Below are positions 12,154 through 18,974 of a stretch of 45,085 nt of DNA, one piece after another. Positions within the stretch are counted from its first letter, which is position 1, and each line of letters opens with the position of its first letter. The DNA comes from a virus (Duplodnaviria > Heunggongvirae > Uroviricota > Caudoviricetes), in IMG/VR virus record IMGVR_UViG_2718217859_000005. One strand, given 5' to 3'. The translations under genes were made by a program, and so were the position numbers. The notes below the pieces were generated by a model, which worked only from the letters and a program-made list of their open reading frames with translations, was not told where the DNA came from and searched no databases.

Positions 12154-12396
12154 ATGACTTTTACCCCTGAACAATTACGCAAACAGGCGCAGGAAATGCT
12201 GCGACAGGCGGAACAACTGGAAAAATCAGGCGTAACAAAAGATGCCATTCGTCGGGATATGGTACCCGCGCTCAGAGAACTGATGCAGGCAAAACACCGC
12301 GCACAAAAAGCAGTGGATGAGCTGGTGGATTGTGTGGCAGAGCTGGAAACCAAAGTTGGAAAGTTTGAAAAACTAGTGCAGGAGGTACTGCGCTGA
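12154..12396 (+). CDS. Hypothetical coiled-coil protein
   Basis: Track ORF 12139..12396; the first ATG is at 12154 and a TTG at 12139 has a GGAG RBS. Highly charged helical sequence. Confidence 0.35.
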
Positions 12397-12761
12397 TGCG
12401 TGATATTCAGATGGTTCTTGAGCGTTGGGGGGCGTGGGTGGCAAATAACCACGAAGATGTTACCTGGTCGTCGATTGCTGCGGGATTCAAAGGACTGATT
12501 CCGTCAAAGGTTAAGTCACGTCCGCAATGTTGTGACGATGACGCGATGATCATTTGTGGTTGCATGGCTCGTCTGAAAAAGAACAACCGTGACTTGCATG
12601 ATCTGCTCGTGGATTATTACGTTGGGGGAATGACTTTTATGGCGCTTGCAAGGAAACATGGACGTTCAGATTGCTGGGTTGGTCGTTTGTTGCAAAAAGC
12701 AGAGGGGATCGTGGCTGGTATGTTAATGATGTTGGATGTCAAACTAGAGATGGAATATTAA
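12396..12761 (+). CDS. Q: Late-gene antiterminator Q-like protein (small Phage_antitermQ type)
   Basis: 121 aa with a Cys cluster ([12 protein letters not shown]); last gene of the early-right operon immediately before the late region; resembles the small Q proteins of E. coli cryptic lambdoid prophages as recalled. Confidence 0.6.
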
Positions 12762-12928: not shown

Positions 12929-14116
12929 TTACTCCATGCTAAGTGAATCCTGATAGCGCTTAAATGCCTCCGCGAAAGCTAGAGCAGCATCAGCATTTGA
13001 TACCATGTATTCTTCTGTAATGCCTGTTTGGGACTGGAAATATAACTTTCCATAAATGCAAATTGGGATTTGATAGTTATCTTTAAATCGTCGGTCTGGT
13101 GAGCCATCTTTATTTGTTTTTGCCCATGTATGCCCAGCTATGCTGGCATCACTCGGAACACCATCCTCTTCATGGAACCCTTGATGCTGCGCATTAATTT
13201 GTAATTCCCGTAAGTCAATCAGAGCAAATGCCCCATCGGGGCGAGGAATTACAGCAATACCCGGATAAAGCAATATATCGTCGCCATTGACATTTTCAAA
13301 TCGCATTGCTCTTCCAGTAAAACGAATTAGATCTGTTGAAGCGAAATCAAATACGACTGGATGACGATCAACTGCTCGTGTAGCTAACGTCCTTTCTGCA
13401 AACTGATCTATAGCTTTATCTGCGGTAATATCCCATTTTTTGATACTTGATTTTAAAATATCGAAAGCACGAATCATTGCTGCATAAGCCCGCTGTGAGG
13501 AATCGCTGGTTTCGAAATTAATGACGATTTTAGTGTTATCTTCCCAGGATACAAGACGAGATACTTCTGCTTGTATTTGTGGTAGCGTTGCTTCAAGTTC
13601 TGCAATGCGACGTTTATAAAACCATCGAAACAGGCTTGATTTACGTCGAGCCAATTCACTCTTTTGTCTTGATTCTTCTGCAAGAGCCTCTTGTAAGTCA
13701 GATGCTATTTCCGCTCTTTGTTCTCGTGCTTTAACGATCAAGTCTCGTAAAGGTAAAAGAGATGTACTTGTCAAGGCCTCTACTGAGGCACTGGAGATTT
13801 CATTCATGCCTGTTTGTGGCATGTACATTTTTGCGTTTGATGGGGTGTTGTCTGAAATTAACTCGGGTGCATCAATATGAGATTCTACAGACGACGGATT
13901 TAGCTGAATGGTTGTGGATGGTTTGTCTTTGTATGGTAAACGAGGGGATGTATACGATAAACCAGATCCTGGTAACCCTAGAGTTGCTTTAATTCCTTTT
14001 TGGTTAACATTAACTGTGGCTCCGGGGACACCAAAACTTGCGCTTACCCCATGTTTACCGATGTTAAGGCGTACTCCGGGGAAAATGGTAAAAGTTTGTC
14101 TGAAGCGAAGAGACAT
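12929..14116 (-). CDS. DUF4236-like N-terminal domain protein with central coiled coil and unknown C-terminal domain
   Basis: 395 aa; AGGGA RBS. N-terminus MSLRFRQTFTIFPGVRLNIGKHGVSASFGVPGATVNVNQKGIKATLGLPGSGLSY matches the DUF4236 pattern as I remember it; central segment is charged and helical. Convergent with Q. Confidence 0.7.
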   Translation of the reverse strand: MSLRFRQTFTIFPGVRLNIGKHGVSASFGVPGATVNVNQKGIKATLGLPGSGLSYTSPRLPYKDKPSTTIQLNPSSVESHIDAPELISDNTPSNAKMYMPQTGMNEISSASVEALTSTSLLPLRDLIVKAREQRAEIASDLQEALAEESRQKSELARRKSSLFRWFYKRRIAELEATLPQIQAEVSRLVSWEDNTKIVINFETSDSSQRAYAAMIRAFDILKSSIKKWDITADKAIDQFAERTLATRAVDRHPVVFDFASTDLIRFTGRAMRFENVNGDDILLYPGIAVIPRPDGAFALIDLRELQINAQHQGFHEEDGVPSDASIAGHTWAKTNKDGSPDRRFKDNYQIPICIYGKLYFQSQTGITEEYMVSNADAALAFAEAFKRYQDSLSME

Positions 14117-14169: not shown

Positions 14170-14454
14170 TACTGCGATGAGACACGAGGCTCATTAAGGA
14201 TTTTTGCATTTTGCTGACATAAATTCTATAAAAATTATGGTGATAAACGTTTTACAATCGTAAAAAAACAAATATGCTGTTAAGAGTGGTACTACGCCAC
14301 ACAGCTTAAACCTGCCGTCGAGCGGTTTTTTTGTACCTGTAAACCTAGTGCAGTACAGTAAACTCGCTGGTGGTTGTGAATACTGACTTTTTATCTTGCT
14401 GGCTTTTTAGACAAGAGTTATTGGTATGTCATGTTAACCAGAAGGGAAAAAGAC

Positions 14455-14788: not shown

Positions 14789-15502
14789 ATGGATGTTGTC
14801 TGTTCAGTTATCATGGTTTGCTCCCCAATTAATATTTTTCTTGAAAAGGATACGTTGTCACTTAAGCCCGGCTCAGTCGTTCTGGCCACCAAATGCATCA
14901 GGGAGCTTTTCCTTATGCATTATGGCAAAGTAAAAATTGTCGATATAAGCCATTCTATAGTAAGTCAATATCTGGAAAGCCAGCATAAGCTGACAAGAGG
15001 TCCTCTGACTGACATTCCACTTTACTTGTTGCTGGACCCCAACAATCCTGCGCTGGCTGCAGCTTTAATTACCAGCCAGAGATTTTCCGGAGAGACCACG
15101 GATATGTTTCTTATGATGGCCTGCCTGTCGCTGTTTGAATCAGATGAACGGATGTCATTATTTTTAAGTGGATGTGTATCCAGTATAAGTGTCAAAGTCA
15201 GAGCGATTATTCAAACAGATATATCATCAAGCTGGACGCTTGGTGCGATTGCTCTACAGTTGCATATGAGTGAGAGCTTGTTAAAGAAAAAACTCAAGGA
15301 TGAAGGTCTCAGGTTCAGTAATTTGTTACTTGAGGAACGGATGCGGGTTGCTGTAAATATGTTATGTTCCCGACATGGATATGGACAGGCTGTAGCAGAA
15401 AAATGCGGTTATTCAAGTAGGTCCTACTTTATCTCTGTATTTCACCGCTATTATGGCTTCCCGCCAGACAGATATGTATCTATGCAAGGGCTTGATTTTT
15501 GA
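14789..15502 (+). CDS. AraC-family transcriptional regulator (Rns/AggR-like size and layout)
   Basis: C-terminal AraC-type double HTH (LGAIALQLHMSESLLKKKLKDEG... and ...VAEKCGYSSRSYFISVFHRYYGFPPDRY); AT-rich gene; true start may be an internal Met. Confidence 0.75.
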   Translation: MDVVCSVIMVCSPINIFLEKDTLSLKPGSVVLATKCIRELFLMHYGKVKIVDISHSIVSQYLESQHKLTRGPLTDIPLYLLLDPNNPALAAALITSQRFSGETTDMFLMMACLSLFESDERMSLFLSGCVSSISVKVRAIIQTDISSSWTLGAIALQLHMSESLLKKKLKDEGLRFSNLLLEERMRVAVNMLCSRHGYGQAVAEKCGYSSRSYFISVFHRYYGFPPDRYVSMQGLDF

Positions 15503-15528
15503 TTTCATCTGATTATTATTTTCGGCCC

Positions 15529-15604
15529 GGCCCTTTAGCTCAGTGGTGAGAGCGAGCGACTCATAATCGCCAGGTCGCTGGTTCAAATCCAGCAAGGGCC
15601 ACCA
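15529..15604 (+). tRNA. tRNA with CAU anticodon (Ile2/lysidine-type or Met), ileX-like
   Basis: 76 nt; 7-bp acceptor stem GGCCCTT/AAGGGCC, anticodon loop CTCATAA, T-loop TTCAAAT, encoded CCA. Closely resembles E. coli ileX as recalled. Confidence 0.85.
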
Positions 15605-15605
15605 A

Positions 15606-15682
15606 CCGCCACTAGCTCATCAGGAAAGAGAGTCAACCCTTTAAGTTGAGAGTGCGAGGTTCGAGTCTCCGGTGGCGGTCCA
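15606..15682 (+). tRNA. Degenerate tRNA-like element (possible pseudo-tRNA; anticodon-loop CCTTTAA)
   Basis: Perfect acceptor stem (CCGCCAC/GTGGCGG) and anticodon stem (TCAAC/GTTGA), but a mismatch in the D-stem and in the T-stem, and C instead of U at position 33. Confidence 0.4.
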
Positions 15683-15684
15683 GT

Positions 15685-15760
<76 letters not shown>

Positions 15761-15763
15761 TAT

Positions 15764-15838
<75 letters not shown>

Positions 15839-16106
15839 GCAGAGGACGATACTAGGTTGTTTTTGGGCACTGACACTTTATGTGGGGCGTTTTTACCTGA
15901 CTCCTTACCGCGTCCTGTTCTGTAATGAATGCTATTTATTACGGTACCAGTGCTATTTTTTTACAATAGTGGAATGGTGCATTACCGGTGGAGATTTTGT
16001 ATTTCCTGGCAGGGTCGGTGATGCATCATTCCGATGTTGTAAGCATCGCTCAGAATAACGTTGAGATTAATCGCGTACTAAGCAAAACCTGGAAATACAT
16101 CCTTAA

Positions 16107-16130
16107 CCGCCGCACCAGGCGGTTTTTTTT
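16107..16130 (+). terminator. Rho-independent terminator
   Basis: Hairpin CCGCC-GCACCA-GGCGG followed by an 8-T run. Confidence 0.55.
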
Positions 16131-16305
16131 ATTCATTTTTTTCATGGCTCGCTACGGCGGGCCTTTTTCATATCCGCGCCACGCCCGGCGCACATCAAAA
16201 ACCACAGAGCCTTTCAGGGGTGAGCTTACGGGATGGTCAGTGTGACTTTCTCTGTGGGCTGGTCACCCCCGGGCGGAGGCTCACCCACTAAAAGGAAAAG
16301 TCACG

Positions 16306-16731
16306 ATGTTTGGTATTTTCAAAAAGAAAACCCGCAAGGCCATTACCGAAGTGAAGAAGATGGAGAACCGCGACGCAGTGGAGGCGACCGTCTGGGGTGC
16401 GTATTCCATTGCATATGCTGACGGCACCTGTGACGCGAAAGAAATCGCGGTACTGGAGAAAACCATTGCAGCACTTCCTGCCTTTGCGCCGTTCTCGGGT
16501 GAGATTGCACAAATGAGTGCAAATATCCGCGCCCGTTATGAAGCATCGCCGCGTTCTGCCAATGCCGAAGCCCTCCGCCAGCTGGCTGATATTGCAGGTA
16601 CTGATGACGCAGTTAATGTGCTGTGCCTGTGTCTGGATATCGCTGACCAGGATGGTATTGGTCCGGATGAAGAAGCACAGCTCAAGAAAATTGCTCAGGC
16701 GCTGCAGCTACCACTGGAGCAGTACCTGTGA
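16306..16731 (+). CDS. TerB-like domain protein
   Basis: 141 aa; AAGGA RBS. All-helical pattern aligning by eye with TerB (VEATVWGAYSIAYADGTCDAKEIAVLEK...; ...VLCLCLDIADQDGIGPDEEAQLKKIAQAL). Confidence 0.65.
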   Translation: MFGIFKKKTRKAITEVKKMENRDAVEATVWGAYSIAYADGTCDAKEIAVLEKTIAALPAFAPFSGEIAQMSANIRARYEASPRSANAEALRQLADIAGTDDAVNVLCLCLDIADQDGIGPDEEAQLKKIAQALQLPLEQYL

Positions 16732-16892
16732 AAAGTGCGCGCCTTGTGCTGGCTGCCATCCTGCTGTTTCTGGTAGTGGCAGTGGATTTCACCGGACGGC
16801 TGATGTCGGTACTGGCAGATGGTGTGCTGGTGGCGGGGATGGTGATAATGGTGTTGCCTTTGCTGAAGAGTGTAAAAAATACACAGACGTGA
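16728..16892 (+). CDS. Small hydrophobic protein (54 aa, GTG start overlapping the TerB-like stop)
   Basis: ORF found by eye (V/MKSARLVLAAILLFLVVAVDFTGRLMSVLADGVLVAGMVIMVLPLLKSVKNTQT); two predicted TM segments. Confidence 0.3.
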   Translation: MKSARLVLAAILLFLVVAVDFTGRLMSVLADGVLVAGMVIMVLPLLKSVKNTQT

Positions 16893-17086
16893 AATGTTAA
16901 ATCCATCACAATTAAGTTGATTGGGCATTGCTGGTTGACGGAGCTTTTGTTAGAAAAAATTTGCATGGTGGATCCCCCCGGGTGGTGGGCATATGAGTGA
17001 TGTATGTTTCTGTTCTGCTCCTTTATTATGCTGATTCGGGTACTGATACTGAATTCATCGGGAGGCACCCGGCACCATGCAAGCAT

Positions 17087-17109
17087 GCCCCTCTCCTGAG
17101 GGGCTTTTT
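17087..17109 (+). terminator. Rho-independent terminator
   Basis: Hairpin GCCCCTC-TCCT-GAGGGGC followed by TTTTTA. Confidence 0.5.
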
Positions 17110-17153
17110 ATATAAACAGGTTCTACAGATTCTATCAGACATGCGTAAACTTA

Positions 17154-17489
17154 TTATGGCCTGTGTCGTTTTAGTCCGTAGGGGCATATTTGCAGAATGC
17201 AACGGTTATTAAAGCATTCATTAAATACGTTATCTGAATTTGCAGGGCATTCCTGGCTGTTTTTGATTAAATCCCAGAATCTTTTATTGAATGGTACAAC
17301 GTTGTAAATGGTTACAGGTAGCACTTTGTTATTGAGTACGATACCTGTGTGAGTCAGCGTAAATATACTTTCAGGAGGTAAGAAAACATCCGATTGATAC
17401 CAGATTATTAATTTTATTTTACTCCATATGGCTGAAAAAGATATTCCACATGATGGCTGGATAACTGTGTCAATCACAATCCACTTCAT
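17154..17489 (-). CDS. Hypothetical Cys-rich protein (111 aa)
   Basis: Track ORF with a good AAGGA RBS 7 nt upstream of the ATG at 17489; AT-rich; Cys-rich C-terminus ([27 protein letters not shown]). Confidence 0.35.
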
Positions 17490-17880: not shown

Positions 17881-18522
17881 ATGAACCATGAAGAAATGAA
17901 TCAGCGCATAAGTTGCCTGGAAAATGAAATCACTGAACTGAATAAAAAACTGTCGGTGCTGATGGTTTCTGAAGATGAAAAAAAACGCCGCGATGAGCAG
18001 GAAGCAGCGTTTTACGATGATTGCATCAAAATTGCTCGCAGGACCTTTGAGAAGATTTTGCAGGAAAAGTTTTTACCGACCGCATTGTCAGAAAAGTACT
18101 CCATTACAGTTAAAAGTGCCGGAGAGGAAGGCAATAAACGTTATTTTATTGCGTCTGCACCGGATAAAGACCAGGAATGGGGGGATAATCGGCCATCTTT
18201 TATTGTGACAAGCGATGACTGGAATATCACGATCCGTGAAGATGGAAAAGTAACACCAGCATCGCACCAGCACAGTGAGGCGCTCATTGAATTTGCCATT
18301 GATTACCTGAAGAACAATAAAAAGCAGGGACTAATGAAGCGCATTGGTCGTTGCATGGGATATCTGCAGGTAGCTGCTGAGATTGAAGCGCTGGCCAGTG
18401 GTGCGGACAAGGATGCAGTTGTGCGGGAGGCTCTTCTTCGTGATTTTGATAATCCGCCCTTTAAAAAAGTGCCGGCTTACTGGTTTCATCCAGGACTGAC
18501 TTATCTTAAAGGACGTATATAA
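17881..18522 (+). CDS. Hypothetical protein (213 aa) with N-terminal coiled coil, inserted between holin and endolysin
   Basis: Starts 4 nt after the holin stop with a GGGAGAG RBS; N-terminal heptad-like helix (MNHEEMNQRISCLENEITELNKKLSVL...); no lysozyme motifs. Confidence 0.6.
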   Translation: MNHEEMNQRISCLENEITELNKKLSVLMVSEDEKKRRDEQEAAFYDDCIKIARRTFEKILQEKFLPTALSEKYSITVKSAGEEGNKRYFIASAPDKDQEWGDNRPSFIVTSDDWNITIREDGKVTPASHQHSEALIEFAIDYLKNNKKQGLMKRIGRCMGYLQVAAEIEALASGADKDAVVREALLRDFDNPPFKKVPAYWFHPGLTYLKGRI

Positions 18523-18531
18523 GCTGGCTCG

Positions 18532-18846
18532 TTATCTGTTGCCGGATAATCGACGGAAGATGCGTTCTTTTTGTGATTTGGCGTAATGATGATCCCACTC
18601 ACATTCAAGGTAGTTTAATTCTTCGTTTAACCAGTCATTTATATTGTCTTTCAGACGTAGAAGCATGGCTGGTGTTAATATTCTGGACATAATGTCGAGA
18701 GTTGGTGGTGTGAGGTGTCCATACGGCTCAGCCTGAATGGATTTTACTGCTTCGTGGTTTTGCTGAATGAGTTTAAGGAATGCTGATTTAAATTGTTCAT
18801 TCATGGCCTGCATGCAGGCGGTATATTTATGTTCATCGTTATACAT
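18532..18846 (-). CDS. Hypothetical protein (about 104 aa), convergent with the preceding gene
   Basis: Track ORF 18532..18900 trimmed to the ATG with a GAGGA RBS (MYNDEHKYTA...). Confidence 0.4.
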   Translation of the reverse strand: MYNDEHKYTACMQAMNEQFKSAFLKLIQQNHEAVKSIQAEPYGHLTPPTLDIMSRILTPAMLLRLKDNINDWLNEELNYLECEWDHHYAKSQKERIFRRLSGNR

Positions 18847-18974
18847 TGCTAAATCCTCGACGGGAATTGTCAGATATATTTCAGCCATCAGGTAAAACAC
18901 CAGTGCCCACCACTGGCGGGCTGAAGACTTAACATATCCAGGGATTCGGAACCGATAAATCCTGATAAATATCC

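Follow-up and report, generated by a model that had tools for sequence, protein, structure and literature searches.

The DNA analysed here (the window) is a 45,085-nucleotide (nt) stretch of the virus record IMGVR_UViG_2718217859_000005 (Caudoviricetes), and its host element is a lambdoid prophage of E. coli. On its plus strand, positions 16306-16892 hold two overlapping genes, the first for a soluble protein of the TerB fold and the second for a small membrane peptide. Sequence comparison identifies them, with very little doubt, as the two-gene tciA-tciB operon, a lambdoid-prophage copy of the pair in phage P1 (NC_005856). TciA of P1 has the same length as the protein in the window and is 85% identical to it over 141 of 141 amino acids (E 3e-91); the two TciB peptides, both of 54 amino acids, are 52% identical. 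A first reading of the sequence (the original prediction) had described the pair as a minimal unit, much smaller than known TerB-containing systems. It is not an unrecognised system: the pair corresponds to tciA-tciB of P1 and is already known under the P1 names, in Pfam (DUF3927), in PHROGs (632 and 1470) and in RefSeq, which annotates the window genes as 'tellurite resistance TerB family protein' and 'DUF3927 family protein'. The region 16100-17300 is 100% identical to E. coli chromosomes of bovine isolates from Okinawa, in which RefSeq annotates both genes.

The tciA gene (16306-16731, plus strand, ATG to TGA) encodes 141 amino acids and is preceded by the Shine-Dalgarno sequence AAGGA (16292-16296), 9 nt before the ATG. 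Its protein matches the Pfam family PF05099 (TerB) with E 1.6e-7 and 32.0 bits (gathering cut-off 24.4) and, over its full length, PHROG 632 'tellurite resistance' (E 6e-65). A profile of five sequences, the tciA protein and four homologues, finds the Klebsiella TerB structure 2JXU at E 1.7e-8, aligning query residues 15-135 with chain residues 21-144. The AlphaFold2 model, built with 55 homologues, has the all-helical TerB-like fold, with six helices and about 20 disordered residues at the start (predicted local distance difference test 87, predicted template modelling score (pTM) 0.83). The original prediction had described a TerB-like protein of this length with this ribosome-binding site and had suggested a profile comparison as a check; the Pfam match above its threshold, the 2JXU match and the modelled fold all agree with it. 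NCBIfam gives only a sub-threshold match of the tciA protein to DjlA (E 0.066), which is consistent with a shared TerB-like domain and not with membership in that family.

We found no transmembrane segment in TciA. Residues 1-19 form a basic, disordered tail with a net charge of +6, and the six-helix body is acidic (net -11). The body contains two motifs of the form A-D-G-x2-D/E-x2-E, represented by D39, G40, D43 and E46 and by D116, G117 and E122. Among these residues, D39, G40, E46, D116, G117 and E122 are invariant in both TerB clades of the family, and the motifs align with SDG..EE and SDG..DE of 2JXU. The acidic DG motifs are proposed to be a metal or ligand site.

The second gene, tciB (16728-16892, plus strand, GTG to TGA), encodes a DUF3927 peptide of 54 amino acids. 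Its GTG overlaps the stop codon of the TerB gene by 4 nt (GTGA, 16728-16731), and a GGAG within the 3′ end of tciA (16716-16719, plus strand), 8 nt before this GTG, is a likely coupling Shine-Dalgarno sequence. The peptide matches PF13064 (DUF3927) with E 3.3e-16 and 59.4 bits (cut-off 25), and PHROG 1470 'TciB-like' with E 4e-22. Its hydropathy profile has two hydrophobic segments, at about residues 4-19 and 25-46, separated by the turn D20-F-T-G-R24, and lysine or arginine residues lie at both ends. The residues R5, D20, F21, S27, D31 and P44 are invariant. The overlapping, GTG-initiated peptide with two membrane segments of the original prediction is supported, and the two genes are translationally coupled. 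DUF3927 is a small family, with only 124 clusters (at 50% identity) reaching E ≤ 1e-3 among 1.84 billion representatives. Four long DUF3927 matches (P0263, P0276, P0286 and P0336) were considered as Rosetta-stone fusions and rejected as frameshifts or assembly chimeras. We also rejected homology of TciB to TerC, for which hhalign gives a probability of 0.1 and Pfam reports only DUF3927. A search of PDB sequences with the TciB profile returned nothing meaningful.

Both genes are under purifying selection. The frame of tciB and a length of 46-58 amino acids are kept in 25 loci despite saturated synonymous sites, and an NG86 comparison of 21 loci gives a mean proportion of synonymous differences of 0.65 and a median ratio of nonsynonymous to synonymous substitution rates (dN/dS) of 0.27. 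For tciA the median dN/dS is 0.19, in a codon-level comparison whose synonymous sites are also near saturation. Such ratios at nearly saturated synonymous sites show that both genes are maintained as proteins, and tciB is a real gene and not a chance open reading frame (ORF).

The two genes were also found together elsewhere. In a set of loci collected through the TerB protein only, in which a single genome stood for each species and E. coli and P1 were added, a DUF3927 ORF directly follows the TerB gene in all 21 complete loci. Starting instead from two DUF3927 proteins (from Klebsiella and Enterobacteriaceae), TerB lies directly upstream in 10 of the 10 places shown. The overlap takes the form GTGA, TGATG or TAATG, or, in locus L022, a TTG start 7 nt into the TAA. 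The pairing is thus obligate and coupled through the overlap. Across 300 pairs of loci, identity in TciA shows essentially no correlation with identity in TciB (r = 0.17), and the peptide of about 50 residues is often better conserved than its TerB partner (loci L001-L039). The enterobacterial prophage locus L008 and locus L020, for example, share 44% identity in TciA and 82% in TciB, and the same prophage locus shares 33% and 69%, respectively, with the N4-like phage Pollock. The two genes are always adjacent but have been reshuffled by recombination at their junction.

Downstream of the pair lies a gene for a small RNA (sRNA) of the STnc100 family (16934-17109, plus strand), a full-length match to Rfam RF02076 across model positions 1-206 (93.7 bits, gathering cut-off 47; E 2e-20). 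An intrinsic terminator had been predicted at 17087-17109 as the end of the unit. The hairpin GCCCCTC-TCCT-GAGGGGC (17087-17104) and its run of five T are indeed present; their assignment to the pair did not stand, as they belong to this backbone sRNA. By its position in the Rfam match, the hairpin is the 3′ end and terminator of STnc100 and is not specific to the TerB operon, although any tciAB transcript made without Q would probably stop there as well. In all lambdoid late-region loci (the Q-tRNA type) that were tested, DUF3927 is followed by STnc100, with a gap of 5 nt in O157 strain Xuzhou21; the tested loci of other contexts lack this sRNA. The cargo transcript may supply STnc100 from its 3′ end. 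In Stx2 phages, STnc100 lies 75 nt downstream of stx2 (PMC12370729), and it is related to the PasD prophage sRNAs (bioRxiv 10.64898/2026.05.13.724894). Because STnc100 follows both tciAB and stx2AB, the place of tciAB in this prophage is that of stx2AB in Stx phages, and the terminator counts as backbone and not as cargo. Cloning 16280-17110, as had been proposed for phenotypic tests, would therefore include a regulatory RNA and confound the phenotypes.

Upstream of tciA, a scan of the plus strand found two terminator-like hairpins in tandem. The first (16105-16132) consists of AACCGCC-GCACCA-GGCGGTT and eight T and resembles an intrinsic terminator; the second (16146-16168), directly after it, has a stem of 7 base pairs, 6 of them GC, and five T. 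The first would stop transcripts from the upstream transfer RNA (tRNA) cluster unless the polymerase was Q-modified. The 5′ leader of tciA contains a GC-rich predicted hairpin (16207-16282, plus strand) that ends 9 nt before the Shine-Dalgarno sequence and has no T-tract; the ViennaRNA fold of 16205-16320 has a free energy of about -43 kcal/mol. In other E. coli genomes, tciA is accompanied by the segment 16137-16305. Neither a consensus nor a relaxed scan of 16125-16305 found a sigma-70 promoter with at least 9 of 12 matches. Since two terminators precede tciA and it has no credible promoter of its own, transcription of tciAB is probably Q-dependent and late in lytic growth, as for stx2. Such late expression fits the C1-repressed setting in P1, where tciABC lies between the C1-operator-controlled Pban and ban (NC_005856), as well as the presence of the pair in lytic phages and the P1 tci transcripts, which are detected and change during lytic infection by P1vir (bioRxiv 10.64898/2025.12.28.696737).

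Further upstream on the plus strand, two promoter-like sites, CTGACA-16-TATGGT and TTTACA-16-TATGCT (14214-14278), are followed by a short hairpin terminator with seven T (14314-14326). Judged by its sequence, the region 14214-14326 resembles a pR'/tR' pair that would give a short transcript like 6S or StxS.

The pair is widespread. A blastn search with it matched 1554 of 5426 complete E. coli genomes, O157:H7 among them, with a median of 2 matching places per genome and a maximum of 8; most of these matches are partial, and only 168 genomes have a place where 80% or more of the query is covered. With TciA as query, tblastn matched 129 phage records and 802 plasmid records, 783 of them non-mobilizable, which are taken to be P1-like phage-plasmids. 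Four contexts recur: the P1 ban region, with tRNA genes on either side, the lambdoid late region, a Rac-like immunity or early-left region, and virulent phages. In the lambdoid late region, as seen here, in O157, in uropathogenic E. coli and in Klebsiella, the order is Q, in some cases a methylase or helix-turn-helix (HTH) gene, tRNAs, TerB, DUF3927, STnc100 and holin, and most of the species-representative loci have the pair between Q and a holin.

The Rac-like order is CI, terminator, operator-like repeats, TerB, DUF3927, terminator, kilR, gam, recT and exo. In these prophages (L004, 3634-4594; L032), the pair forms a unit of its own, preceded by the CI terminator and operator-like TTTAGCAT repeats and closed by another terminator. 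One locus also has a BstA gene (KilA-N plus BstA_C) between CI and TerB. The accessory slot between CI and kilR holds sieB in Rac, lambda and P22.

Among virulent phages, the N4-like E. coli phage Pollock and Salmonella phage FSL SP-058 encode TciB (E 3e-28 and 4e-27) among their replication genes, and Pseudomonas phage phiK7B1 encodes it as well (E 3e-11). The Erwinia jumbo phage Asesino has a weakly TciB-like ORF (E 5e-5) next to tRNAs. In the N4-like Vibrio phage BUCT194 (locus L038, 1-1926), genes for TerB, a TerC of 339 amino acids and a TciA-like TerB stand in a row. This TerC is genuine (PF03741, E 3e-41) and stands where DUF3927 would be, and the arrangement is a partial ter cluster in a virulent phage. 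Over these contexts, the pair is a mobile phage accessory module. A separate observation is that it adjoins phage tRNA genes in four unrelated phage types, namely P1 (L001), lambdoid phages (L003, L005 and L024), the Erwinia jumbo phage (L035) and Pseudomonas phage phiK7B1 (L037); this adjacency may reflect a shared accessory hotspot or tRNA-mediated recombination.

The original prediction had placed the unit in a cargo region, and this region proved to be the stretch from Q to the holin of the lambdoid prophage, in the order Q antiterminator, tRNA genes, tciAB, STnc100 and holin. The Q antiterminator gene (12396-12761) is followed by a gene on the minus strand for a DUF4236-domain protein of 395 amino acids (12929-14116), which is inserted between Q and the presumed pR' region. 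An ORF of 66 amino acids separates the DUF4236 gene from a gene for an AraC-type HTH protein (14789-15502). A promoter-like site at 15492-15519 could drive the tRNA cluster (15529-15838, plus strand), which is upstream of tciA. ARAGORN finds four tRNAs there, with anticodons CAT (tRNA-Ile in RefSeq), Lys-TTT, Thr-TGT and Gly-TCC, and RefSeq annotates three. The Lys-TTT candidate (15606-15682) scores 33 bits in Rfam, compared with 65-72 for the others, and may be degenerate.

About 270 nt of non-coding DNA lie 3′ of the tRNA-Gly (15839-16170, plus strand), with the two tandem terminators at the end. Two sub-segments, 15948-16042 and 16103-16197, are found independently of each other, and without annotation, in hundreds of E. 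coli genomes. Rfam gives no match in 15839-16170 except a spurious one to mir-983 (15957-16046), and the stretch may encode a further prophage sRNA, similar to PasA/PasC or AgvB. On the other side of the pair, an iraM-like gene (17154-17489, minus strand), annotated as an anti-adapter in RefSeq, is convergent with tciAB and STnc100 and lies just upstream of the holin gene. It matches PHROG 4407 and nothing in a Pfam search. IraM stabilises RpoS. The class II holin gene is annotated from 17662, on the same strand as tciAB. It is followed by an ORF of 213 amino acids (17881-18522, plus strand) without a significant Pfam match, which lies between the holin and lysozyme genes, and by a convergent ORF of 122 amino acids (18532-18900, minus strand). 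The lysozyme gene and further lysis and morphogenesis genes come after the 213-amino-acid ORF.

The function of the pair is a question of some weight, given that it is widespread in E. coli, in about 800 plasmid records and in several virulent phage families, and that O157:H7 prophages carry it in the slot equivalent to that of stx. The explanation that best joins the observations, to which we assign a probability of roughly 0.45, is that the tciA-tciB operon is expressed late and yields a membrane-associated TerB complex that aids the phage. The functional part of this explanation, that TciA and TciB act as such a complex for the lytic cycle, is offered tentatively, at somewhat less than even odds. 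The pair would be transcribed mainly by Q-modified polymerase from pR', late in lytic growth, with parallels in the P1 pair, in the C1-repressed ban operon, and in the N4-like pair among replication genes. TciB would be inserted in the inner membrane with both ends cytoplasmic and would localise or activate TciA at the membrane, aided by the basic N-terminal tail of TciA. Together they would form a minimal counterpart of the TerB-TerC membrane unit found in ter operons, in which the acidic DG motifs would serve as the site for a cation or ligand. For TerB itself, membrane association and an interaction with TerC have been reported (Turkovicova 2016, as cited in PMC11003894; Alekhina 2011, also cited second-hand). 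Such a complex might condition the envelope or the proton-motive force of the infected cell. A possible benefit is tolerance of membrane insults (pore-forming colicins, oxidative damage, abortive-infection effectors or superinfecting phage) until programmed lysis; another is exclusion.

Several observations weigh against this proposal. The tci names in P1 were assigned 'by homology' in the annotation, and in a CRISPR interference (CRISPRi) knock-down tciA, tciB and tciC were dispensable for plaque formation by P1 (PMC10695390), so any benefit of tci must be conditional. That TciB might replace TerC is an analogy only, as TciB has no similarity to TerC. The uncorrelated identities of TciA and TciB speak against a tightly co-evolving interface. 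A single-chain AlphaFold2 model of the natural read-through fusion P0053 (196 amino acids), whose read-through probably arose from a 1-nt indel, reached a pTM of 0.39 with a multiple sequence alignment of TciB only; this model, in which one continuous helix spans residues 120-191, was discarded, and in mixed alignments the short TciB sequences were wrongly placed on the N-terminus of TerB, also when the fusion rows were duplicated. Finally, our promoter scans used a simple consensus, and a weak or non-sigma-70 promoter at 16170-16305 is possible, as is expression of tciAB in lysogens. The literature that we found on tciA and tciB consists of annotation-level mentions and the CRISPRi essentiality table, and genome papers merely note lone phage terB genes (PMC8421299, PMC7371120).

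A doubtful alternative is that the pair is expressed in the lysogen and provides anti-phage defence or superinfection exclusion, with TerB surveying the membrane and the peptide blocking DNA entry or aborting infection. Shango and Bunzi, both validated defence systems, contain TerB domains (PMC10250203), ter operons confer phage inhibition and colicin resistance (PMC7371120; PMC9603915), the tci region is hypervariable in P1-like phage-plasmids (PMC9603915), and the Rac-like pair sits between the CI repressor and kilR, in one locus adjoining the abortive-infection gene bstA. However, no PADLOC-DB v2 family, Shango and Bunzi included, matches either protein or three neighbours at E ≤ 1, and the window contains no effector, helicase or ATPase partner. 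Moreover, the pair has no detectable promoter of its own and is shielded by two terminators from upstream transcription. Its obligately lytic carriers (N4-like, jumbo and Pseudomonas phages) form no lysogen that could be protected, and their possession of the pair speaks against a role confined to protecting lysogens, although lytic phages too encode exclusion proteins. The membrane-stress or anti-phage module suggested in the original prediction is thus still a conjecture; the missing PADLOC match, the presence of the pair in virulent phages and the lack of a recognisable promoter of its own make a part in the phage's lytic programme more likely than defence of the lysogen. An unlikely variant would make TerB and DUF3927 a self-sufficient minimal membrane device for counter-defence or exclusion during lytic growth. 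The highly conserved peptide (VDFT..MSvLADGvLV) would target a conserved component of the host inner membrane and its fast-evolving TerB partner would respond to a cation or to a signal from the membrane, so that superinfecting phages would be excluded or membrane-depolarising abortive-infection defences neutralised. If true, this would be a kind of system not yet in any defence or anti-defence catalogue, present in temperate and virulent phages of Enterobacterales and Pseudomonas.

The position of the pair about 0.7 kb upstream of a class II holin gene, with which it shares the strand and the late transcription unit, could instead indicate a lysis-timing accessory, in which the peptide and a TerB regulator modulate holin triggering in an antiholin-like manner. 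TciB is holin-sized with two hydrophobic segments, and Q and a holin flank the pair in most species-representative loci. Nevertheless, we regard such a role as improbable, since the pairs in P1, N4-like phages, jumbo phages and the CI-kilR slot are away from lysis genes, the type of the adjoining holin varies (class II, Phage_holin_8/3_7, holin_3_3), and here STnc100 and the opposite-strand iraM-like gene separate the pair from the holin. The family name, and homology to TerB of terZABCDEF, might suggest a genuine tellurite-resistance determinant that converts the lysogen to tellurite resistance. Resistance as such is very improbable because terC, terD and terE are absent from the neighbourhood, where the neighbours are tRNAs, DUF3927, STnc100, the iraM-like gene and the holin; published resistance constructs need at least terBCDE(F) (pLK18 terBCDEF, PMC11003894), and the authors on phage PMBT3 argue likewise for a lone phage terB (PMC8421299). 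It is equally hard to credit that the pair is hitch-hiking DNA without a function, or a remnant decaying in a hotspot of recombination. Its mosaic flanks, variable breakpoints and dispensability in P1 (PMC10695390) would suit this explanation, but both ORFs are intact and full length, the overlap is kept through three start/stop solutions, dN/dS is 0.19 and 0.27 at saturated synonymous divergence, and the pair occurs in many phage families and in 1554 of 5426 E. coli genomes (mostly with partial query cover).

Compared with known systems, the pair is neither Shango, Bunzi nor a ter operon. Shango (a TerB-like protein, an ATPase and a helicase) and Bunzi share the TerB domain with tciA, and 'membrane surveillance' has been proposed for both (PMC10250203). 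The window, by contrast, has no ATPase, helicase or Bunzi partner, and the tci pair, unlike those systems, also occurs in virulent phages. The TerB protein of Bunzi has transmembrane helices (PMC10250203), whereas TerB and the transmembrane segments are on separate polypeptides here. TerB of the terZABCDEF cluster (2JXU) has the same family and fold, with a chain of 153 amino acids compared with 141, and both acidic DG motifs align. In that cluster terB immediately precedes the membrane-protein gene terC, as tciA precedes tciB. However, the window pair comes without TerC, TerD, TerE, TerZ, TerA and TerF, its membrane partner is a 54-amino-acid peptide unrelated to TerC, and its carrier is a phage, whereas the ter cluster is on an IncHI2 plasmid or an O-island.

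The closest likeness is to P1, whose tciABC genes were annotated by Lobocka et al. 2004 (NC_005856) and whose tci genes lie in a part of the genome that is hypervariable among P1-like phage-plasmids (PMC9603915). In both, the tciB start overlaps the tciA stop, and the pair adjoins phage tRNA genes downstream of a lytic-cycle promoter. The coupling is by GTGA here and by TGATG in P1, the carrier here is an integrated lambdoid prophage, and the 3′ neighbour is STnc100 here compared with tRNA-Ile and ban in P1. DNA similarity to P1 begins at the tciA ATG and stops just short of the stop codon. A third P1 gene, tciC, also encodes a small membrane protein; tblastn with P1 TciC finds nothing in the window and, among the loci, matches only the P1-like L001 and L012, and the window has no ORF between tciB and STnc100. 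The O157:H7-type pair (Xuzhou21 CDCO157_RS10995/RS10990) occupies the same slot as the pair in the window, with an HTH gene, tRNAs, TerB, DUF3927, STnc100 and holin. Its TciB is about 60% identical to that of the window, whereas its TerB is only 43% identical and belongs to the second clade, with 143 amino acids and two insertions of one amino acid each.

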